Sequence record: MT446408.1 | Origin: Escherichia virus TH35 | Direction: 5' to 3' (one strand) | Length of the DNA stretch: 64,000 nucleotides | In this document: positions 12,905 through 45,512 of the stretch, in pieces | How the letters are laid out: every line of letters begins with the position of its first letter | Position numbering within the stretch: the first letter of the stretch is position 1 | Notes under the pieces: generated by a model | Seen by the model: only the letters and a program-made list of their open reading frames with translations | Told to the model about the DNA's origin: nothing | Databases searched by the model: none | Program-made: the position numbers and the translations under genes

Positions 12905-13549
12905 TTACATGACTGCTAGTGCATCCTTGTAACGCTTTCTTCGCAACTCACCGTGGTTCGCTGCGTTCGGCGCGGCCCCATTAATCCGCTTAACGGTTGA
13001 ATCAAAATTCCCTGCATCCGCAAGAGGAATACAACCACTATTCTTAAAGAACCATGCCGCGCTGTCGGCAATGTATTTTGGTTCAGTCAGAATATCAGGA
13101 TTGTTCAATGCATCATAGCCTGATTGACGCGTATATTCAGCATAGTTCGCTTTGCCAGTCAGCTGAATGGCACCACGGCCACGGTACTTCCAACCGTCGC
13201 CAGATGCTACCGAACCGTTGCCCATGCGGTTTGCGTATGTATTATTGGCGATTTCCATAGGTTTACGTGCAATCGACAGGGCCAATGAGTTCGGGGCGCT
13301 TCCAGCACGACCGTTGACGCTGTAACGACTAGGCCATGTATTGGCAAGGCCCTGTGCAGAGTAGTTGAGATTTTCCACAAAGGTCTTCAAGCCGCCCGTC
13401 TCTACTCCTACGTTTGCAAGGAATGCTGCAATGGCATTCTTGCTTTTTATTCCGTAGTGCTCACAAGCCTGCTTGAAAGGATCCACCCAATTTTCTGCAA
13501 CATCCGTGCTGCATCCTGTCCCTTTAGATATTACGTTTGCATTAATCAT
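12905..13549 (-). CDS. Endolysin, glycoside hydrolase family 19 type
   Basis: ORF track 214 aa; AAFLANVGVETGGL and GDGWKYRGRGAIQLTGKANY motifs. Confidence 0.8.
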   Translation of the reverse strand: MINANVISKGTGCSTDVAENWVDPFKQACEHYGIKSKNAIAAFLANVGVETGGLKTFVENLNYSAQGLANTWPSRYSVNGRAGSAPNSLALSIARKPMEIANNTYANRMGNGSVASGDGWKYRGRGAIQLTGKANYAEYTRQSGYDALNNPDILTEPKYIADSAAWFFKNSGCIPLADAGNFDSTVKRINGAAPNAANHGELRRKRYKDALAVM

Positions 13550-13557
13550 AAATCACC

Positions 13558-15345
13558 TTATGCGCTTCTGTACCAGCCATTCAAAACAACGTATCGCGGC
13601 AAAGTCGCAACAGCCGTTGGCACCGACTGCCCTGCATTGCCAGTGTTACCGACCACATCGTGAGTGTGAGCGGGAAGGGTATAGCTGTGGCTGTGATTGC
13701 CAGCGTAATTTATATTCAACCCATGGGTGTGTGATCCAGAAGATTGAATATTATGAACGTGGTTGCCATTAGTTGACGTATTGTATTTGTAGTTATCCCA
13801 GTCGCCGCCTTTGCGACTTCCGAAGTTGTTGTGTGTCCCATCATAAACGCCGTACCGCGCATCGCTAGTATTGGCTTCACCCCAGCTACTGTCATGGTGG
13901 TGGTTGCCTGCCGTGTCCATTCCGTGCACGTGAGCGCCGTTTTGACTGGTATCGCCTGTGTGGTTGTGGTTGCCTGCGTCTCCAGTGGTATTGGACCATG
14001 GACCACTTTGTCGCGTGGTAATGTTCACGCTGTGATTGTGGAGAGGAAGCATGGCGGCGGTAAGGGTAACAGAGTCTGCTCCGCCTGTATCAAGACCGTT
14101 TCGTGCAGCGCCGGACGTGCGAATCACCATGTTATCAGGCAGTCGTGTCCATACCTGGCCGTAAGCGCCCAGTTTAGTATTCGGGTTGGTCCCGTTGGTG
14201 AGGAATCGAGTCTCACCGACTTCGAACACATCACCCATAGTGATCAACTTCGCAGCCAAAGCATCGAGTTGGCGCTTTGTAACAAACTGTTGCGGCTCAG
14301 TAGCATCAACGCCGATTTGCGCCGCGCCAAACGCCTGAAGGAGACGCCAAACAGTTCCGTCATAAATGATGGTGAATGGCAGCAATCCTACGATAGCGCC
14401 AGCTGGCAACTCGCCGCCGTCGAATCCAAGAACGGCAACTTTGTTTACACCAATGGTCACGGTGACAGGTCCGGTAGTCGTTACATCATTGACGATTGTC
14501 AGGCGACTACCTGCTGACGGAGGCCATGAATACCCTGCTGGAACGGTGAGAATTATATCTTGCGCGCCTTTACCTGATGCAAGATTCGGCGTTCCAATTT
14601 GCACATCTTGAACAGTGGCATTTTGAATCCAAGCACTCCAAGCACCAGAAGTATAAGAGCGAGTAAACAAATAGCCATTCATTGATGTATATTGCTGCAA
14701 GGCAAAGGTTTGCGCATCGACCTGCCAAGCGCAGACCTGCAGTCGACCTGCAACCTTCGTTGCGCCAACCGCATTCGGGATGTTAGAGCACAGAGCGGCG
14801 ACGGCATCGGATTGAATGACGATAGTTGTGGATGTCGTGATGTTATCGAAGTCCACAAAACTTGAAATCAATCCGCGAACAAAGTACGGGTTTTGCGCAT
14901 CGCCGCCAGCAGGCATCGGAATGTATTTTCGCGCTTCGCTGGGCAGTGTTAATTCCTGCCAAGATTCCGTTTCTCCGTTAGCTGGGACGGCGCTTGTGTT
15001 GCCGTCGACCACGCTCTGAAAGATGCGCCACTCAGGTGCTGAAGGCGTTCCAGAGTTGCTGACAACGATGGCATTTTTCGGGTATCCATCAGGCTTCAAG
15101 TCAGAAGAGAAATATTGTTGAGCGCCATGATCTTGAATAAACATAAGGTTGTCTGTGATCAAATTCAGCAACCAGTTCATCGATTCGCGCTCAACAGCTT
15201 TCGCGGCGACGTTTCCAGCCTCCAGAGCAAGCGCATAGTCAGGGGTGTAGCCGCGCTGGAAGTTTACATAACCGCTTGGGCTTGCATCCGGCACCACGGA
15301 TACATCACCGCTTTGCGCGAAAGGTCTGTTAATAAGTGTTGGCAT
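13558..15345 (-). CDS. Tail fiber protein with His-rich C-terminal repeats
   Basis: ORF track 13558-15402; start moved to ATG 15345 (RBS AGAGGAA); repeated HxH motifs near C-terminus. Confidence 0.7.
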   Translation of the reverse strand: MPTLINRPFAQSGDVSVVPDASPSGYVNFQRGYTPDYALALEAGNVAAKAVERESMNWLLNLITDNLMFIQDHGAQQYFSSDLKPDGYPKNAIVVSNSGTPSAPEWRIFQSVVDGNTSAVPANGETESWQELTLPSEARKYIPMPAGGDAQNPYFVRGLISSFVDFDNITTSTTIVIQSDAVAALCSNIPNAVGATKVAGRLQVCAWQVDAQTFALQQYTSMNGYLFTRSYTSGAWSAWIQNATVQDVQIGTPNLASGKGAQDIILTVPAGYSWPPSAGSRLTIVNDVTTTGPVTVTIGVNKVAVLGFDGGELPAGAIVGLLPFTIIYDGTVWRLLQAFGAAQIGVDATEPQQFVTKRQLDALAAKLITMGDVFEVGETRFLTNGTNPNTKLGAYGQVWTRLPDNMVIRTSGAARNGLDTGGADSVTLTAAMLPLHNHSVNITTRQSGPWSNTTGDAGNHNHTGDTSQNGAHVHGMDTAGNHHHDSSWGEANTSDARYGVYDGTHNNFGSRKGGDWDNYKYNTSTNGNHVHNIQSSGSHTHGLNINYAGNHSHSYTLPAHTHDVVGNTGNAGQSVPTAVATLPRYVVLNGWYRSA

Positions 15346-15355
15346 TGCCGTTCCT

Positions 15356-18094
15356 CTACACGATGTATTTAATTTTTGATAAAAGGGTCGATGCCCAATC
15401 ACCAGTCAAGTCAGTTATATTCATGCTTGAAACATAACCGCCAGCAGCACTTCTTGGAAAGTTTACTGTCGCTACAACATCACCATTCGAAGCTATCAAT
15501 TGAACTCCAGTCGCCAGTGACCCTGGGTTTTTGATGTATATAGAAGTTGCAGTTTTCTTTGCAAAATCTTCGCTTGTTGAAATCGCAAGCGCATTCATCG
15601 TATTACCAGAAACAAGCATCAAGCTTAAAATATCAAGTTCAAGAGTCGTACCAACTTCGGTCGGCAAGTCTTTCCCTGATATCAAACCAATGCTGATTCC
15701 ACCTGTCGAACCATCCCAAGTCGTTCCTGCAACAATCTCAGCGGCAAGGTCAATTTCGATACGTTGCAAATCACCTGCGCCTATGCTGTAGAATTTAGGG
15801 ATATAGCCGCCCATACCATCCGGTACGGTTACGAAAAGTTTTTGACCGTTTACCGTGTTGTTTTTAACTATTGCGATAAATGACAAAGGACCAGTCAGGT
15901 TGCCAGTGTATTTAGTAGCAAGTACAGCGCGTGCATAACCGGACGCTGGCACAGTCCCTATTGTAGCGGAAAGCTTGAATGATGGGAACTGGTTGGGCAC
16001 ACCGCTGATTGGCGTCGCCGTTACCGTGTTATCTCCGTCCTTGATGATATTGCCAAAAGATGTGCCGTCATTGGGCTGTGTGTATCGCCAGTAGTTTGTG
16101 ATCGCGGCACGTGGGATTTCACGACCAAAGTCATCTCTTGATGCTTTTGAGATTGAATAGTCGTTGACAAGCGCGCCATCGATAACTTGGTTAACACCTT
16201 TCAGAGACTCAAGCTGTCGTATTACGCCTTTAAAGTTGTTCAGCGGCCACTCGTTTATGCCGCCAACTCTGATGATCCCGTCAGTGTTAATCCATGCGAC
16301 ACCTTCCGTTTCGAATCCAACTCGCGTGTCTGTTATGTTGCTGACAGTCAAATCAATATCAGATAAGTCTGCGACTTCTTGGTAAAGTTGCCAACGTATT
16401 CCGGCATTTGCTGGCAAGAATCCTTCATTCCTGTCGCCAACTAGCGTCTTAAAGTTATCAGACAAGTTGTTGGCGAAATAAGGTCCGATAACATATTCCA
16501 TGTAATAGTCAGCGGTCGGCGGCGGCGGTACTCCGTCCAATCGGCTAACGTTCCATGAGCGTCTGATTCCGTCTGTTTCTGCGATTAGAGTGGCGTTTCC
16601 TGGGTACGGGTAGCCGCCGATTGAACCAGAGTACGCAAGTGATGACCCAGGCTGCATAAATGACTCGCCCACCACGCCATTTCTTGTCGTCAACGGACCG
16701 TTTGCGCAAGAAATGTTGTTGAGCGTTCCTGCCGTAACAGACAAAATTGCTGTGCCATCTGCAGGCGGATTTTGAGTCCCATAGAAATAAGGCTCAGGCC
16801 CATTAGGATTCTGAACAGGGTCGCAAACACAAATTGAGTATCCAAAAAGAAGCGCATCAGACCCTTCAGGCAATTCGCGAGTCTGAGTTGATCCAGCGGC
16901 AGTCGCTTTCAACTCAATTGAAAAGCTTGTGTTTACCCCAGCTGTCGCGTTCGCAGTTTGTTCTACAATCCAGATTCTGTACCAATCGCCGCCGATTGCC
17001 TTGATGCCACCACGGTTTGATTCCCTTCTCACACCGTCGAACTTGCCTGTGATGAAATAACTCAAAGAAGAGTCAAGGTTGAACTGCCCAGTCACTGGGT
17101 CGAAAAGTTTTCCATTACTCGATGCATCACTATTCTCTGTTACGGAAACAGAAGCCACGTTTTCAGAAAGCACTTTTATGTAGAAGCTATAGCAAACGTT
17201 GACACCAGCCTGAGAAGGAAGCGCAATAGATTGGGCGCTTGGATTGCTGGCCAAAGAATACACAGGCTCGCCGCTGGAAGCGGTTTTGATGACCCGTACT
17301 GCGTTGGCGAAATTCTCTATGGCTTCTCCTGGGTAATCACCACACAGCTGGCCGTAATAGTCAGGGCCGCCATATTGGCGTGTATCACCGCCGACAATAC
17401 CAGTGCCGGACCCGTTACCCCATGAATACCAGTCTGGGTGTGCCATTCGCGAAACGGTCCCTGCCACCCCACTTATGGTAAGTCCTGCGTTGTTGCCGTG
17501 ACTCAAAAGAACTTGTTTATAATCGTGCTGAATCTCAGTTGACCCCTGCCAGTCGTACAGAAGGAATGAACCGTTTGTTGATTCAGAAGAAGACACCGCG
17601 CCTTGAGTATTGTCTGTCACGTATGCATAGCGCGATGAAGAGTAATCCCAATCTTCTCCACGGTTAAAAATCCACTTAAGCATACGGTTGATGCTTTCGA
17701 TGCGGCCATCACTTGTAAGCGTCAGATAACGAAGCTTCAGAAGGATGCGCGCTTCTTCAATGTTTTTCACAACCTTTCCGCCAGCACCAAAGAAGTTGCC
17801 GCCGATATTGTCCGGCCCTTCAAAGTTGTCGCGTGTTGGCCCGAATGCCCAGTTGTGCTCATAGTTACTTAAGTCAACAAAGTCTCTTGGGATGCATAGG
17901 ATGTCGCACCAAATATAAATGCCCATTGCGTCACAAGTATCAATGTTGAATATGTTCTTGTACCAGTCAATCCAAAACTGATCTTGATATCGCTCATACC
18001 AGTCACTTTTCTTCTGAACCAAAGATGTGATGTTTGGCGCGTTGTTTTGCATCCACTTAAGGTTTTGCAACAGGTTTGTGTCAAACTTTTGCAT
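15356..18094 (-). CDS. Large tail fiber / baseplate-associated structural protein (912 aa)
   Basis: ORF track; size and position between baseplate genes and distal fiber. Confidence 0.6.
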   Translation of the reverse strand: MQKFDTNLLQNLKWMQNNAPNITSLVQKKSDWYERYQDQFWIDWYKNIFNIDTCDAMGIYIWCDILCIPRDFVDLSNYEHNWAFGPTRDNFEGPDNIGGNFFGAGGKVVKNIEEARILLKLRYLTLTSDGRIESINRMLKWIFNRGEDWDYSSSRYAYVTDNTQGAVSSSESTNGSFLLYDWQGSTEIQHDYKQVLLSHGNNAGLTISGVAGTVSRMAHPDWYSWGNGSGTGIVGGDTRQYGGPDYYGQLCGDYPGEAIENFANAVRVIKTASSGEPVYSLASNPSAQSIALPSQAGVNVCYSFYIKVLSENVASVSVTENSDASSNGKLFDPVTGQFNLDSSLSYFITGKFDGVRRESNRGGIKAIGGDWYRIWIVEQTANATAGVNTSFSIELKATAAGSTQTRELPEGSDALLFGYSICVCDPVQNPNGPEPYFYGTQNPPADGTAILSVTAGTLNNISCANGPLTTRNGVVGESFMQPGSSLAYSGSIGGYPYPGNATLIAETDGIRRSWNVSRLDGVPPPPTADYYMEYVIGPYFANNLSDNFKTLVGDRNEGFLPANAGIRWQLYQEVADLSDIDLTVSNITDTRVGFETEGVAWINTDGIIRVGGINEWPLNNFKGVIRQLESLKGVNQVIDGALVNDYSISKASRDDFGREIPRAAITNYWRYTQPNDGTSFGNIIKDGDNTVTATPISGVPNQFPSFKLSATIGTVPASGYARAVLATKYTGNLTGPLSFIAIVKNNTVNGQKLFVTVPDGMGGYIPKFYSIGAGDLQRIEIDLAAEIVAGTTWDGSTGGISIGLISGKDLPTEVGTTLELDILSLMLVSGNTMNALAISTSEDFAKKTATSIYIKNPGSLATGVQLIASNGDVVATVNFPRSAAGGYVSSMNITDLTGDWASTLLSKIKYIV

Positions 18095-40001: not shown

Positions 40002-41462
40002 TTAAAGGTTAGAGAAGAAGCCGGATGCTGCAACAATTGGTTTCATCAACGCCATGATTGCTGCGTCCGCTTTGTTAGGCGATTTGACTCCACGCTTTGC
40101 CATATCCTTTTTCGATTCAACTTTAAACTTACCAAGCACAGACGTGTCTTTGCGCGGCGCTGACATCTCAAAAAGAAATGTCTCAATTTCTTCCGCAGAC
40201 CAAGCAGGAATCCCAAGTTCTGGAATGCCGTCTGTGTCGATGGAAATCAGCTCATCAGTCGGGTATACAGCCTGCCCTGTTGCATACTCATATGTCTTCC
40301 TGAATCGTTCGGCAATCTCAGTCCATTTTTGCGCTTTTATGTTTGCGAAATGGTCTTTATTGAGTATTTCAACGTGTGGTAACTCAAGGAAGACGTCATC
40401 AGGATCATCAACAGCACCTTGCGCGTTGAACGCATTAAATTCGATTCTTGGGAATGTTGGATTTTCATGGATTGCATACTCATTAAGCTCATCAAATTTT
40501 GAACCAGCAAATGCACCAACACCGATGGCGTCATAGGTAATTGATGCGCCGAATGTTAATGCATCTTTCCAAACTCCGCTTGCGGACTTAAGCAATTCAT
40601 CTTCCAGACCTTCCCATGTCTTGATGCCGCGCAATACGTTGCCCGTGACAAATGCTGTGGCGTTTAAGTCGTCGCCGTCGTCTGCCACGTCAAAGCCTAT
40701 ACGGTTAGACCCTGACAAGCTCCATCCCAACGTAGGGTGTTTGTGGAGGTTTAGCGCGGCCTTGACGAATGCACGGTTGATGACCGACTTGTCGCCGCCT
40801 GTCTTCGGTACTCCGCCATAAACGTGTTCTGCCTTTTTCGGGTCGCGCTCATACATGCCAGCGATAACGTCCAGCATTGTTTGCGACAAGAATGGATTGT
40901 CCTGCCAGTTAATCTTCTTAACAATGGCATTTTTAGGCGGTCGCATAACAAAGTTCTGGTAGACGAAATCAGCCTCTTCATCAGGGTTAAATATGATCCA
41001 TATTTCGGACCCTTCCTTACGAATTGTCGGCTCAATAATATCCCACTGCTCTTCAGTCAGCGCGTGCGCTTCTTCAAGCCAAAGAACGTCAACACCTTCT
41101 GTTGATTTGATTTCGTCAACGTTGCGTGCGATACCGTAAAATAAGAATTCAGATTTTGTTCTTTTGTGTTCAATGGAGTTCTTTAATAAGTTGAACTCAT
41201 CTTTGAAATCAGAAATTTCTATTTTGTCTTTTAATAGCGTATATACTGATTCAGAAATCTTGTTCTGGAATTGTCGAACGCAAAGGAATTTTAATTTAAA
41301 ATTTGCCGCCAAATAAATAGCAAAACCAGCGGCATCATGCGATTTGGAAGATGCACGACCGCCGTATATAACTTTGTATCGCGCTTTCGTCTTCCAGACT
41401 TCTCTTAAAGCAGGATTCAACTGGTACATGACTTTCCAATTATGTGTTAATATTTTATTCAT
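40002..41462 (-). CDS. Terminase large subunit
   Basis: ORF track 486 aa; Walker A-like VIYGGRASSKSHDAAG; nuclease-type C-terminal half. Confidence 0.9.
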   Translation of the reverse strand: MNKILTHNWKVMYQLNPALREVWKTKARYKVIYGGRASSKSHDAAGFAIYLAANFKLKFLCVRQFQNKISESVYTLLKDKIEISDFKDEFNLLKNSIEHKRTKSEFLFYGIARNVDEIKSTEGVDVLWLEEAHALTEEQWDIIEPTIRKEGSEIWIIFNPDEEADFVYQNFVMRPPKNAIVKKINWQDNPFLSQTMLDVIAGMYERDPKKAEHVYGGVPKTGGDKSVINRAFVKAALNLHKHPTLGWSLSGSNRIGFDVADDGDDLNATAFVTGNVLRGIKTWEGLEDELLKSASGVWKDALTFGASITYDAIGVGAFAGSKFDELNEYAIHENPTFPRIEFNAFNAQGAVDDPDDVFLELPHVEILNKDHFANIKAQKWTEIAERFRKTYEYATGQAVYPTDELISIDTDGIPELGIPAWSAEEIETFLFEMSAPRKDTSVLGKFKVESKKDMAKRGVKSPNKADAAIMALMKPIVAASGFFSNL

Positions 41463-41470
41463 ATTATAGT

Positions 41471-41499
41471 TTGCTTGCGACAGCTATATCAAGTAAAAT
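41471..41499 (+). promoter_or_regulatory. Candidate sigma70-like promoter (TTGCTT-N17-TAAAAT)
   Basis: Read from sequence; lies in divergent intergenic region between terminase and + strand genes. Confidence 0.3.
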
Positions 41500-41539
41500 T
41501 ATGATTCCAGCTTAGTAGTGGATAAAGGATGATCTTTTC

Positions 41540-41568
41540 GGCCAGATTCTTTCTGGCCATTTTTTTTA
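41540..41568 (+). terminator. Terminator-like hairpin (GGCCAGA...TCTGGCC) followed by T8, immediately upstream of an RBS
   Basis: Read directly; unusual position 5' of gene 41582. Confidence 0.5.
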
Positions 41569-42757: not shown

Positions 42758-43099
42758 ATGAACAATACTTTATCACAACTGCTAATCTGGACAATTGCTG
42801 CTATCATCGGCACCGTTATTATGATGTCGAGTGCAAAGGCCGATACGGATATTTGCGGCAGACTTATTTCTGAGAATGGCGAGATTTATTATGGCAACTC
42901 AAAAGGCGATTATATATCGCCTGAGGTTTGCGCTCAGAAGAAAGCAGAAATGCAAAAGCAGTATCATGAAGATCAATCTATATCTCAAGCCGCGCTGATT
43001 GAATTAAGTATATCAGCCATCATCTTTCTAATCGTTTTTATGCTCATTATTAAACCAGATAATGGCAGCCACCGTCATATTCCTCTCAAAAGAAATTAA
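42758..43099 (+). CDS. Membrane protein with N-terminal signal/anchor and C-terminal transmembrane segment
   Basis: ORF track 42566-43099; start moved to ATG 42758 with RBS AAGAGG. Confidence 0.45.
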   Translation: MNNTLSQLLIWTIAAIIGTVIMMSSAKADTDICGRLISENGEIYYGNSKGDYISPEVCAQKKAEMQKQYHEDQSISQAALIELSISAIIFLIVFMLIIKPDNGSHRHIPLKRN

Positions 43100-43137: not shown

Positions 43138-45480
43138 ATGCCAAGGCTAATATTCAAAAACAACTTTGAGGTCGCGCTGGCTCAACCAACGACGACTTCA
43201 GACACCACAATCACAATTCGCTCAGGGTCGGGCTTTCCGACTTTGGGCGCAAACGAGCGTGTAGTGGCGACAATCGTCGACGCTGCAACAGGCCTCCAAT
43301 TCGAAATCGTCACAGTAACAGCCGTGGTTGGAAACGTCCTGACCGTGCAGCGTGCTCAAGAAGGAACTGCAGCGCGTGCATGGGCTGCTGGTGACATGCT
43401 TTCCATTCGAACTACTGCCGCGACTTTGACGGGTACTGTCCGAAACTTTGGCGCTGTTCCATCCGGTATGAATTTGAACGCTCTTACTGGCAGCTGGTTT
43501 GGGCAATATTATCAGAACTCTGACGGCGCAGCCTCTTCTGGGTTGAACTATCCTGTTGAGCAGGCAGGAGTCCTAGAGGTGTTGCAAACAGGAGTATCGA
43601 CCGAAAGTTGCATCCAAAAATACACATCATATTCCATCAACAACACTTACCAAAGAAGATTCAATGCGCAAAATAGCACATGGTCTCCTTGGGTGATGAT
43701 TTATTCAGAATCAAGCGTCATACCTGTGTCCAACGGCGGCACGGGTCAAACAACCATTCAGGGGATGAAGTCCGCGTTTGGATTCGGTACAGTTGCTGAT
43801 CAGAATGTCGTCCCTACTTCCATGGGCGGTACGGGCTCAGCAGACAATGCACAAGCATGGCTGAATATTCGTCCACAAGGGTCAACGCCGCTCGCTGGTG
43901 ACCCAGTTAACGATTATGATGCCGCGACCAAGCGTTGGGTTGAAAACTTAGTTAACACAGGCACCATTGGTCCAAGCATGAACGGTGTCATGAACTATGG
44001 CGTTGGTGATTTTCACTTACGCGACAGTCGTGCATATATTCAACCGTATGAAGTCGTTGCTGATGGGCAGTTATTAAACCGCGCTGACTGGCCTGAACTT
44101 TGGTCATATGCGCAAATGCTGTCGCCTATTGCAGATGCTGACTGGCTGGCGGACCCGCAAAAGCGCGGAAGATATTCCTTGGGGAATGGCACCACCACAT
44201 TCCGAGTGCCAGACCGCAACGGCGTCCAGACAGGGTCAATAAAAGAGCTTTTCTGCAGAGGTGATGGCGGCAACCCGACAAACGATGGAATGGTGTATAA
44301 TGCTGCTGCGCCTAACATACTTGCCTATACGCCTCACACAGTGCTCACCGCTGCCAGTGCAAAAGGCCAAGTGGCCACTGATGGGTCTTTCACATCAACG
44401 ACATCCACTAGTGGTGTTTGGCCTACGTCCGGTGGCGAAGGCCTGTATGCGAATATCCGTTTCGACGCTTCCCAATCATCTCCATTGTATGGTCGATACG
44501 GAATCGTGGACAACCTGATACCAAAGAACTTTATTGGCGTTTGGGTGATTCGTGCATCGGGTGGATTTGTTGCCGCGAATACGTCTTGGAGTGTTATAAA
44601 TGGTGATGGCACAAGACCGCCTGGCGGGACGAGAGTTGAATCAGGGAAAGTAAGCGTTGAATACAAGATTGGAACTTCCATTGAAGCGCAAGGAACGGTT
44701 TACACATCAGCAACGATGGGTGGTTCATACTCCACCCAGTTGTCCGTAAAAAACGTCACTGCAGGTAAAGAAAAAGACATCAGCTTGACTGATGACGGTC
44801 TATTGTGGTCTGACCGATTTGCGGCACGTTACGGAACATTGATGTCATGGGCTGAAACAGGTTCAAAGTCAGGCACCTTCTCGATGACGAGACAGGCACT
44901 TGGTCAAAACTATGGCTTTAACAGCCTTATCAGCGGTAGTCAATCTGTTAATACAGGATACGCAACTACTGTTCACCATGGCATGATTCACAACAACAAT
45001 GGAAGTTTTGCGCAAGCTACGTGGATTGCTTCTGGTGATGATGATGCAAAGTATCAAACAAAGATGCAAATCCAGCCTAACGTAGAGGATGTATTTTTTT
45101 CAGTATCCGTTCCAGGCTCTGACAGCTTCTTTACTCTTCAAAAGAATGCCATCTCTGATGAGAATTTGAAGCATGACATACGACCAGGAACGGTTGAAAA
45201 AGCATGGAGCAACCTTTCATCGCTGGAGTATGTAACGTTCATATACAACAATGATGAAAAGGAAAGGATAAGAAGGGGTATTATCGCTCAACAGGCAGAG
45301 ATTATTGACCCTTTGTATGTTAAGACGATTAAATTCTATCCGAGTGAAGGTGTCGAAGTTGAACAAAAACAACTTGACACGACACCTATGCTTTTGGATA
45401 CGATGCACGTGGTGCAGGAGTTGATGAAAAAAGTTGAATCCCTAGAGGCAGAGATAGCCGCGCTGAAAGCAGCAAAATAA
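43138..45480 (+). CDS. Tail fiber/tailspike protein with C-terminal intramolecular chaperone (peptidase S74-type) domain
   Basis: ORF track 780 aa; C-terminal NAISDENLKHDI motif followed by coiled-coil. Confidence 0.7.
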   Translation: MPRLIFKNNFEVALAQPTTTSDTTITIRSGSGFPTLGANERVVATIVDAATGLQFEIVTVTAVVGNVLTVQRAQEGTAARAWAAGDMLSIRTTAATLTGTVRNFGAVPSGMNLNALTGSWFGQYYQNSDGAASSGLNYPVEQAGVLEVLQTGVSTESCIQKYTSYSINNTYQRRFNAQNSTWSPWVMIYSESSVIPVSNGGTGQTTIQGMKSAFGFGTVADQNVVPTSMGGTGSADNAQAWLNIRPQGSTPLAGDPVNDYDAATKRWVENLVNTGTIGPSMNGVMNYGVGDFHLRDSRAYIQPYEVVADGQLLNRADWPELWSYAQMLSPIADADWLADPQKRGRYSLGNGTTTFRVPDRNGVQTGSIKELFCRGDGGNPTNDGMVYNAAAPNILAYTPHTVLTAASAKGQVATDGSFTSTTSTSGVWPTSGGEGLYANIRFDASQSSPLYGRYGIVDNLIPKNFIGVWVIRASGGFVAANTSWSVINGDGTRPPGGTRVESGKVSVEYKIGTSIEAQGTVYTSATMGGSYSTQLSVKNVTAGKEKDISLTDDGLLWSDRFAARYGTLMSWAETGSKSGTFSMTRQALGQNYGFNSLISGSQSVNTGYATTVHHGMIHNNNGSFAQATWIASGDDDAKYQTKMQIQPNVEDVFFSVSVPGSDSFFTLQKNAISDENLKHDIRPGTVEKAWSNLSSLEYVTFIYNNDEKERIRRGIIAQQAEIIDPLYVKTIKFYPSEGVEVEQKQLDTTPMLLDTMHVVQELMKKVESLEAEIAALKAAK

Positions 45481-45487
45481 TTCACTC

Positions 45488-45512
45488 AAGGCGCTGAAAA
45501 GCGCCTTTACTT
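45488..45512 (+). terminator. Rho-independent terminator (weak T-run)
   Basis: GGCGC-TGAAAA-GCGCC hairpin after fiber gene stop. Confidence 0.45.

Follow-up and report, generated by a model that had tools for sequence, protein, structure and literature searches.

The fibres of Wifcevirus phages provide the closest described setting for the gene examined here. The genus is stated to carry two fibre sets: a conserved HxH fibre encoded in the tail module and a variable "T-shaped" fibre whose gene lies past that of the terminase (Humolli et al. 2025, PMC11990801). The T-shaped fibre is described as running from an N-terminal anchor through a gp12-like RBD1 and a T5-like RBD2 to an intramolecular chaperone (IMC), and the HxH fibre orthologue as having a T4 gp37-like tip with ion-coordinating HxH motifs; Wifcevirus isolates were found to depend on the O16 O-antigen (PMC11990801). 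Mass spectrometry of CsCl-purified vB_Eco4M-7 and ECML-117 virions has revealed both fibre proteins (PMC7048862). For the chaperone, the reference system is T5 pb1, which has a proven cleavage site at Thr1263|Ser1264; cleavage is prevented by the Ser1264Ala substitution, and the serine is activated by Lys1269 (PMC4690869). Polymannose O-antigen is the ligand of the T5 tip. The lateral fibres of a further phage, DT57C, are essential on O-antigen-producing strains (PMC10713586); its LtfA, a 1076-aa protein, is joined to a siphovirus tail via an LtfC collar and a long coiled coil, and is accompanied by a second fibre, LtfB.

The DNA analysed here, referred to as the window, is a stretch of 64,000 nt from Escherichia virus TH35 (MT446408.1), a Wifcevirus (Lindbergviridae) myophage of E. 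coli. The two fibre genes and their landmarks were located as follows.

43138..45480 (+): variable ("T-shaped") tail fibre gene, complete open reading frame with ATG start, 780 aa
43126..43130 (+): Shine-Dalgarno sequence GAGGA, 7 nt 5' of the fibre ATG, read from the sequence
45488..45507 (+): terminator-like hairpin, 8 nt past the fibre stop, with an 8-pair stem including 5 GC pairs (consensus scan) and a weak T-tail
40002-41462 (-): terminase gene, beyond which the T-shaped fibre gene lies
13558..15345 (-): conserved HxH fibre gene, 595 aa, last gene of the baseplate module, ATG at 15345
13660..14040 (-): eight HxH motifs of the HxH fibre, aa 455-581, found by regular expression on the translation

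The 780-aa protein matched PHROG 6921 ("tail fiber protein") from end to end (E 1e-198), and more than 100 full-length homologues were found on contigs of about 68 kb. Its gene lies outside the tail module, and its neighbours are small plus-strand open reading frames of unknown function. The same locus beyond the terminase gene, with the same neighbours, holds the ManiWeber/Bas99 fibre "Gp114" (PMC11990801), which is colinear with the TH35 fibre over 780 aa at 62% identity; the anchor, the conserved core, and the conserved C-terminal helix are identical in the two proteins, which diverge in the knob, in the loops of RBD1, at the RBD2 tip, and over most of the IMC. The analysis establishes the identities of the domains, their conservation, the shuffling of cassettes, and the context of the gene; the 780-aa protein is very probably a second, variable lateral tail fibre that determines host range and ends in a self-cleaving chaperone domain.

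The preliminary description had pointed to a separate His-rich fibre, to two fibre types on the virion, and to a bearing of this arrangement on host range. The protein encoded at 13558-15345 was indeed found to contain 20 His, and its gene is on the opposite strand at a distance of 27.8 kb; two fibre types are in agreement with the mass spectrometry of congener virions and with the published statement for the genus. The link to host range could be refined, as it is the S74 fibre that varies, whereas DNA identity in the region of the HxH fibre is 97-98% genus-wide. The HxH open reading frame extends over 13558..15402 (-) when read from a GTG, with the 595-aa ATG version matching the annotated orthologue. 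This protein matched PHROG 5717 (1.6e-176), and its N-terminal 372 aa are homologous to the "gp47 Tail fiber" of structure 9b45 (E 1.3e-31). Its repeated HxH motifs suggest that it may be a T4 gp37-like needle with putative metal binding. In phage kaset, the orthologue is annotated as "tail protein". Neither of the two TH35 fibres was matched in NCBIfam.

The T-shaped fibre is more elaborate than the fibre plus chaperone first proposed, comprising an anchor, a knob, RBD1, RBD2, and the IMC. The modules upstream of the chaperone are arranged as follows.

43138..43437 (+): N-terminal anchor, predicted baseplate attachment module, aa 1-100, near-invariant
43438..43737 (+): pyocin-knob-like domain, variable, cassette 1, aa 101-200, from sequence and fold matches
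43738..44277 (+): conserved shaft and tail-collar-like core of RBD1, aa 201-380, from conservation and the LtfA match
44278..44517 (+): hypervariable loops of RBD1, cassette 2, aa 381-460, mean pairwise identity 37%
44518..44637 (+): conserved island FxGVWVIRASGGFVAANTxW, aa 461-500, between two variable regions
44638..45153 (+): distal tip RBD2, hypervariable, cassette 3, aa 501-672, C-terminus of the predicted mature fibre

The anchor displayed a mean identity of 93-100% per 20-aa block among 44 homologues, and it recurs in many unrelated phages at an identity of 37-53%. A homologous segment is present in the virion structure 8jov, at aa 4-98 of the tail fibre of Ralstonia phage GP4, a model that includes the fibre in 18 chains, i.e., 6 trimers; the structure was identified as phage GP4 by tblastn, and a literature search for PDB 8JOV found no paper. 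The GP4 fibre (8jov chain 1) resembles the TH35 fibre at both ends, having an SDERLK S74 C-terminus in addition to the homologous anchor; however, it is only 439 aa in length, is encoded by an unrelated phage of 61 kb, and has no knob, RBD1, or LtfA-like core.

The knob was matched to R2-type pyocin fibres by sequence and fold over aa 102-189, including (i) a phmmer match to the R2 pyocin fibre 6ct8 at 5.6e-7; (ii) profile matches to 6ct8 and 6cl6 at ~1e-8; and (iii) a Foldseek match to 6ct8 at 1.4e-3 with a model of pLDDT 74-85. Pyocin knobs reportedly precede a lectin-like foot, as Buth and colleagues are said to have described in 2018. Unlike the pyocins, TH35 has a single knob near the N-terminus that is itself a shuffled cassette; its DNA identity falls to 50-65%, compared with 89-100% in the flanks.

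The conserved shaft and core (aa 201-380) had a mean identity of 77-100% per 20-aa block, with values of 91-100% as far as aa 360. When compared with DT57C LtfA (PDB 8hqz chain d), aa 229-557 were found to align with LtfA residues 535-869 at an E-value of 4.5e-113 with long identical stretches, and the S74 end is common to both proteins, the IMC also matching. In contrast to LtfA, the TH35 fibre has a different tip and a short anchor of another family that is predicted to dock on a myovirus baseplate. Pfam Collar was detected on the fibre below threshold and over aa 344-361 only (E 0.0043; 17.4 bits, with the cut-off at 24), and T4 gp12 had no significant hhalign match to the 115-sequence profile. 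As far as aa 360, every 20-aa block of the RBD1 region is at least 91% conserved with fibres classed as dual-RBD; its gp12-like nature in TH35 is putative. The AF2 monomer model of the full protein had a mean pLDDT of 50 and was usable only for the knob, aa 490-550, and the IMC; modelling of aa 229-500 with a sub-alignment gave a mean pLDDT of 41.5, which was unusable.

The distal tip had a mean pairwise identity of 28%, and it is 97.8% identical to that of phage kaset. The conserved island, in which residues F465 to W484 are invariant, is the recombination breakpoint with kaset; past nt ~1420 of the gene, identity switches to 87-99%. The tip plus IMC was 57-59% identical to the lateral-fibre C-termini of T5-like siphophages, and hhalign found no significant match between T5 pb1 and the 115-sequence fibre profile. 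Equivalents of the T5 folding sensor (Arg1250/Asp1239) could not be identified, as aa 640-672 contain no Arg, and no invariant Arg or Asp was found in the tip among the 115 homologues, with the caveat that the tip alignment is unreliable and the monomer model of low confidence (pLDDT <50 for aa 559-672).

When the homologues were grouped at 85% identity, 34 types of knob, 39 of RBD1, and 24 of RBD2 were distinguished. Distance correlations among the three were low (0.14-0.24), compared with 0.69 for RBD2 and the IMC. The cassette borders were marked by a sharp change in DNA identity, with the flanks being 96-100% identical and the RBD1 loops about 40% identical to congeners. These patterns suggest that the knob (aa 101-200), the RBD1 loops (aa 381-460), and the tip (aa 501-672) reassort almost independently, and that the IMC co-varies with the tip. 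The three-cassette combination of TH35 was absent from the 114 homologues, the closest of which had an overall identity of 92-93%. The dual-RBD descriptions so far recognize two modules, and a three-module reading would add the knob, reassorting independently of RBD1 and RBD2. We offer tentatively, as a possibility that falls short of our preferred reading, that the fibre has three exchangeable specificity modules with the knob as a third glycan-contacting cassette, and that the chaperone is perhaps not always shed, its peptides being abundant in purified virions of one congener.

At the C-terminus, the preliminary description had proposed an S74-type chaperone domain with a characteristic motif and a coiled coil. 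The following features were identified in this region.

45145..45180 (+): motif NAISDENLKHDI, aa 670-681, predicted scissile bond Ile672|Ser673
45154-45156 (+): codon of Ser673
45169-45171 (+): codon of Lys678, predicted general base
45154..45477 (+): intramolecular chaperone (IMC, Peptidase_S74, PF13884), aa 673-780, 12.4 kDa
45379..45474 (+): terminal alpha-helix with a heptad pattern, aa 748-779, from DSSP at pLDDT 83-89

A profile search bore out the S74 assignment. PF13884 was matched at aa 673-725 with the whole protein (E=1.2e-9, 38.7 bits) and more strongly with the C-terminal 126 aa alone (6.6e-11, 42.8 bits); both scores exceed the curated gathering cut-off of 22 bits, and the match is far beyond chance. 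The motif and the heptad-bearing helix of the earlier proposal were likewise recovered. Hydrophobic residues read from the sequence occupy the a/d positions of this helix (V759, L762, V766, L769, I773, and L776), which is predicted to form the trimeric coiled coil of the IMC, and the last ~25 codons were 96-100% identical at the DNA level in the four congeners compared. The IMC (aa 673-780) was modelled by AF2 at pLDDT 82-90 with an alpha/beta fold that closes in the coiled-coil helix and, as a monomer model only, was matched by Foldseek to the MyRF ICA domain (7dc3, 1e-5) and the endoNF IMC (3gw6, 6e-4); profile matches were to 7dc3, 6f45, and 3gud. The K1F endoNF chaperone and the MyRF ICA thereby share with TH35 both S74 profile membership and a fold match to a confident region of the model; they differ in the passenger upstream, which in TH35 is a fibre tip, in place of a sialidase beta-propeller/beta-helix or transcription-factor domain.

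With T5 pb1, the TH35 fibre has in common a serine at the border of the tip and the IMC, a coiled-coil end, and the SDxxLK form of the motif (SDARLKNDV in T5 vs SDENLKHDI in TH35), with the five-residue spacing of Ser673 and Lys678 equal to that of Ser1264 and Lys1269. This shared motif was recognized by eye only; BLASTP gave no alignment between the TH35 IMC and the C-terminus of T5 pb1, and the IMCs differ in length (133 aa in T5 vs 108 aa in TH35). Ser673 and Lys678 were invariant in sets of 45 and 115 homologues; together with Gly714 and Ala717, they are unchanging inside an otherwise hypervariable C-terminal half.

Whether the chaperone leaves the virion after folding the tip was addressed with published virion mass spectrometry data, and the two congeners disagree. 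In ECML-117, 18 of the 20 detectable peptides of the mature part were observed compared with none of the seven from the IMC (P=4e-5), as for a processed fibre. In the CsCl preparation of vB_Eco4M-7, the IMC was abundant, with all six detectable tryptic peptides found, 498 of the 2013 PSMs, and peak areas comparable to those of the mature part. Either chaperone release is not universal or this preparation held unprocessed fibre. The vB_Eco4M-7 result is what would be expected if the S74 domain folded the tip and then stayed on the virion as a distal cap, uncleaved or cleaved but bound, such that the full 780 residues were present. We regard this arrangement as unlikely, given that the ECML-117 data from the same study run counter to it, the invariance of the Ser/Lys dyad is hard to explain without catalysis, and the chaperone is released in T5 and K1F (PMC4690869). 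Moreover, the fibre outscored the capsid protein in the vB_Eco4M-7 preparation and replication proteins were present, suggesting an excess of unassembled fibre. Cleavage and loss of the IMC is thus supported in ECML-117 but not in vB_Eco4M-7, and is the predicted outcome for TH35, whose IMC shares only ~31% identity with those of these two phages.

The S74 family also raises the question of enzymatic function, since Pfam describes it as "Chaperone of endosialidase" and the orthologue of phage vB_EcoM_SP13 is annotated as "endo-N-acetylneuraminidase". It is nevertheless highly improbable that the 780-aa protein works as a tailspike enzyme (a depolymerase, e.g., an endosialidase) instead of a binding fibre. 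Searches of Pfam, NCBIfam, PHROGs, and PDB detected no catalytic or beta-helix domain (sialidase, pectate-lyase-like), all of the PHROG matches with a functional category (12 of 14) were to tail fibre or tail proteins, and Humolli et al. (PMC11990801) class these proteins as fibres rather than spikes. The simplest explanation for the annotation in vB_EcoM_SP13 is the S74 family name, and the depolymerase or endosialidase reading was rejected for want of any catalytic domain.

Least credible of all is a recent capture, in which the gene would be a piece of a T5-like lateral fibre with no functional part in the virion: despite the high identity of aa 229-557 to DT57C LtfA and a locus outside the tail module among small unknown genes, this was rejected on conservation and on the virion mass spectrometry of orthologues, as the position and near-invariant anchor are the same in more than 100 contigs of Wifcevirus size, the open reading frame is intact with a Shine-Dalgarno sequence and a terminator-like hairpin, orthologues are plentiful in purified virions, and a virion structure resolves a fibre to which the anchor is homologous.

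From the preferred reading of a variable lateral fibre with a self-cleaving chaperone, we infer the following course of assembly and function. Three fibre chains would trimerise, and the invariant N-terminal ~100 residues would dock the fibre onto the baseplate. The knob, the tail-collar/gp12-like lateral RBD1, and the distal RBD2 would offer variable surfaces to surface glycans, most probably O-antigen. The C-terminal 108 residues would act as the chaperone that templates folding of the interdigitated tip and, after correct trimer folding, the Lys678-activated Ser673 would cut the Ile672-Ser673 bond, separating the mature fibre (71.4 kDa) from a chaperone fragment of 12.4 kDa. Host range would evolve as the three variable cassettes are exchanged by homologous recombination within the conserved islands that separate them, with the tip and chaperone travelling together. 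The conserved HxH fibre would probably serve a constant step, e.g., secondary binding or triggering.

The gene is presumed to be the main host-range determinant of a phage group considered for E. coli O157 biocontrol and therapy. The cassette borders and conserved recombination anchors could guide fibre engineering, in which the tip and chaperone must be moved together in swaps, and the junction peptide NAISDENLK provides a simple mass-spectrometric read-out for processing. Fibres of this type have been on record for the genus since 2025, so that the TH35 gene represents a new allele of something already known; both the architecture and the two-fibre arrangement were already published, and the current view of phage fibres is unchanged. 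The S74 domain was annotated in an orthologue as early as 2020, and some homologues carry the NCBI title "pyocin knob domain-containing S74 family peptidase".

The 780-aa variable tail fibre of TH35 (S74 fibre) is a new allele of a kind of fibre known from earlier work on Wifcevirus. The preliminary description, which had read it as a second fibre with a self-cleaving S74 chaperone, was right in its interpretation, but the biology is known from Humolli et al. 2025 (PMC11990801) and Necel et al. 2020 (PMC7048862). In the former study, four Wifcevirus phages dependent on the O16 O-antigen were isolated, and the genus is stated to carry two fibres: (i) one encoded in the tail locus, which is highly conserved and has a T4 gp37-like HxH tip; and (ii) one termed 'T-shaped', built of an N-terminal attachment domain, gp12-like RBD1, T5-like RBD2 and intramolecular chaperone (IMC), with highly variable RBDs that undergo horizontal exchange with the fibres of Tequintavirus and Gordonclarkvirinae. 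The ManiWeber fibre, an example from that study, is colinear with the S74 fibre at 62% identity. Necel et al. had annotated PF13884 in the orthologue vB_Eco4M-7_27 and detected both fibres by mass spectrometry (MS) in CsCl-purified particles of congeners, which, with the statement for the genus, bears out the proposal of two fibre types on the virion.

At the DNA level, the structural region of the window shares 97-98% identity with vB_EcoM-Ro157lw, WFH, ECML-117, kaset and other members of Wifcevirus, a genus assigned to Lindbergviridae in one record. The annotated gene order of kaset carries over directly, with the terminase large subunit, portal and head genes, sheath, baseplate, HxH 'tail protein' and endolysin on the - strand. 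The S74 fibre ORF was found exactly where it had been placed, on the strand opposite to the terminase gene and 1.7 kb past it, amid small unknown ORFs; it is indeed encoded away from the tail module, at a distance of 27.8 kb. The features are as follows.

Features of the window and of the orthologue loci
12905-13549, - strand: endolysin (kaset annotation)
13558-15402, - strand: mechanical ORF of the HxH fibre, the conserved fibre of the baseplate module
15356-18094, - strand: 912-aa protein, encoded next to the HxH fibre on its 5′ side
40002-41462, - strand: terminase large subunit (kaset annotation)
42758-43099, + strand: 113-aa ORF, 38 nt 5′ of the S74 fibre gene
7 nt 5′ of the S74 fibre ATG, + strand: ribosome-binding site GAGGA, from the sequence
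43138-45480, + strand: S74 fibre gene, ATG start, 780 aa
45488-45507: terminator-like hairpin after the S74 fibre stop codon
L005:301-2640: vB_Eco4M-7 orthologue, 779 aa, Ser671
L006:1501-3858: ECML-117 orthologue, 785 aa, Ser677

The C-terminus of the S74 fibre belongs to the S74 family. The motif noticed earlier, NAISDENLKHDI, is present at aa 670-681 (nt 45145-45180) and contains Ser673 followed five residues on by Lys678. The profile check suggested earlier came out positive: Pfam Peptidase_S74 (PF13884) matched aa 673-725 (E=1.2e-9; 38.7 bits, where the curated cut-off is 22) and scored 42.8 bits on the C-terminal 126 aa alone. In line with the anticipated coiled coil, the last 32 residues form one predicted helix (pLDDT 83-89) with hydrophobic residues in 3-4-3-4 heptad spacing (V759, L762, V766, L769, I773 and L776). 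Ser673 and Lys678 were invariant in 115 sequences, and within the C-terminal 270 residues only G714, A717, L769 and K780 were similarly fixed. The confident part of the model matched the MyRF ICA domain (7dc3, 1.1e-5) and the endosialidase chaperone (3gw6, 6.2e-4); a profile search of PDB sequences added S16 gp37 (6f45) and phi29 gp12 (3gud). The mechanism is taken by analogy from T5 pb1, in which Thr1263|Ser1264 is cut, Lys1269 activates the serine and Ser1264Ala blocks cleavage (PMC4690869); its SDARLKNDV compares with SDENLKHDI in the TH35 protein. No counterparts of the sensor residues of T5 (Arg1250 and Asp1239) were found in the tip, which is too variable to align and in which the monomer model is unreliable.

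The domain map was built from an alignment with 44 homologues and then with 114.

Domain map of the S74 fibre
aa 1-100: anchor, nearly invariant
aa 101-200 (43438-43737): variable knob, similar to the R2 pyocin fibre knob
aa 201-380: core, highly conserved
aa 381-460: RBD1 loops, hypervariable
aa 461-500: conserved island, breakpoint with phage kaset
aa 501-672: distal tip (RBD2), hypervariable
aa 673-780 (45154-45477): S74 domain (IMC)

The anchor shares homology with the N-terminus of the tail fibre from Ralstonia phage GP4, seen in a virion structure (8jov, 18 chains), and anchor-like modules at 37-53% identity occur in many unrelated phages. The knob resembled that of the R2 pyocin fibre by sequence (5.6e-7), profile search (about 1e-8) and fold (Foldseek 1.4e-3; pLDDT 74-85). 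Residues 535-869 of DT57C LtfA, a T5-like lateral tail fibre (PDB 8hqz), aligned to aa 229-557 (E 4.5e-113), and the S74 domain aligned with LtfA too; a Pfam Collar match in the core (aa 344-361) was sub-threshold. Because two AF2 monomer runs were poor except in three small domains, and profile comparisons of the fibre with T4 gp12 and T5 pb1 were negative, the putative gp12-like RBD1 and T5-like RBD2 folds are assigned from published multimer predictions for homologues.

At 85% identity the 115 proteins comprised 34 knob, 39 RBD1-loop, 24 tip and 15 IMC types. Pairwise distances among knob, RBD1 and tip were nearly uncorrelated (Spearman 0.14-0.24); those of tip and IMC were tightly linked (0.69), with 25 combinations observed of 24 x 15 types. 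The chaperone travels with its cognate tip, and the knob reassorts independently of RBD1 and RBD2. DNA identity to congeners, 96-100% across the flanks and the first 250 nt, dropped to 50-65% in the knob; it was back at 80-90% in the core and then only ~40% in the RBD1 loops, with a clean switch to 87-99% against kaset from about codon 474 on. This pattern is the signature of cassette exchange, with the conserved islands as sites of homologous recombination. The last ~25 codons and downstream hairpin (45379-45507), 96-100% identical in the four compared congeners, probably serve as the 3′ homology arm. This allele's knob type was shared by 7, its RBD1 type by 9 and its RBD2 type by 19 of the 114 other sequences, and the three were together in none of them. 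The best overall identity to any homologue was 92-93%, and no phage record covered at least 80% of the gene at the DNA level.

Published peptides (PMC7048862, Suppl. S2/S3) were mapped onto the two orthologues. In ECML-117, all 18 peptides lay N-terminal of the serine, the last stopping 8 residues short of Ser677; 18/20 detectable peptides of the mature part and 0/7 of the IMC were seen (hypergeometric P=4e-5), and the IMC is absent from these virions. In vB_Eco4M-7, all six detectable IMC peptides were found (498/2013 PSMs), and their peak areas resembled those of mature-part peptides. Retention of the IMC on vB_Eco4M-7 virions is a less likely reading, and the ECML-117 result stands against it. 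An excess of unprocessed fibre is a plausible explanation of the same peptides; in this preparation the fibre scored top, above capsid, and some non-structural proteins were present. Either the chaperone is not always shed, or one preparation contained unprocessed fibre. A junction peptide cannot show in either data set because the tryptic junction pieces are 6-mers; that of the TH35 protein, NAISDENLK, would be of detectable size.

Domain identity, the invariant dyad and the gene context were observed, as were the shuffling of cassettes and the presence of orthologues in virions; beyond these, the best-supported model has five steps. The S74 fibre would (i) form a trimer, (ii) be docked on the baseplate by its anchor and (iii) bind presumed O-antigen-type glycans through its variable surfaces; (iv) the IMC would template tip folding; and (v) Ser673/Lys678 would cut Ile672|Ser673 to yield a 71.4-kDa fibre and a 12.4-kDa fragment. 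We infer a division of labour between this fibre and the HxH fibre. The knob as a third specificity module, if true, or a chaperone kept on some virions would modestly raise the importance of the S74 fibre.

Several minor observations accompanied these results. The knob was sharply bounded, its 50-65% DNA identity lying between flanks of 89-100%; in the excerpted text of Humolli et al. 2025 (PMC11990801) it is not mentioned as a variable, receptor-binding or third shuffled module. The rest of the IMC was as low as 27-56% identical where the last ~25 codons stayed at 96-100%. Homologues of anchor aa 1-104 (43138-43449) among the tblastn matches listed, to which another 69 unlisted records belong, came from 39-63 kb phages of Klebsiella, Ralstonia, Burkholderia and Pseudomonas; because those listed included no phage like Pbunavirus, the nearest relatives of Wifcevirus, there is a hint that the variable fibre was gained after the two lineages split.

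The separate His-rich fibre proposed earlier is real, with eight HxH motifs within aa 455-581 and, from the ATG at 15345, a length of 595 aa that agrees with the annotated orthologue. The 912-aa protein matches PHROG 4797 (profile length 567) and carries a DUF2612 domain at its N-terminus (aa 10-146); it probably corresponds to the 98.6-kDa 'putative structural protein' of the vB_Eco4M-7 virion MS, and one of the two fibres may have it as its baseplate partner. The endolysin encoded directly after the HxH fibre contains a chitinase-like domain of glycoside hydrolase family 19 (Pfam 34.4 bits, PHROG 181). ARAGORN found no tRNA or tmRNA genes in the whole window (1-64000). The gap at 41463-41560 separates the terminase gene from the + strand cluster ending with the fibre gene, and holds, as consensus matches only, divergent promoter-like sites, one of them an 11/12 sigma-70 match on the - strand, as well as a terminator-like hairpin (41540-41558). 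The 113-aa ORF was without Pfam or PHROG matches; its product carries a signal/TM segment at the N-terminus and a TM segment at the C-terminus (MNNTLSQLLIWTIAAIIGTVIMMSSAKA...). It is conserved beside the fibre gene in kaset, Bas99, ECML-117 and vB_Eco4M-7, under the annotation 'transmembrane domain and signal peptide'.
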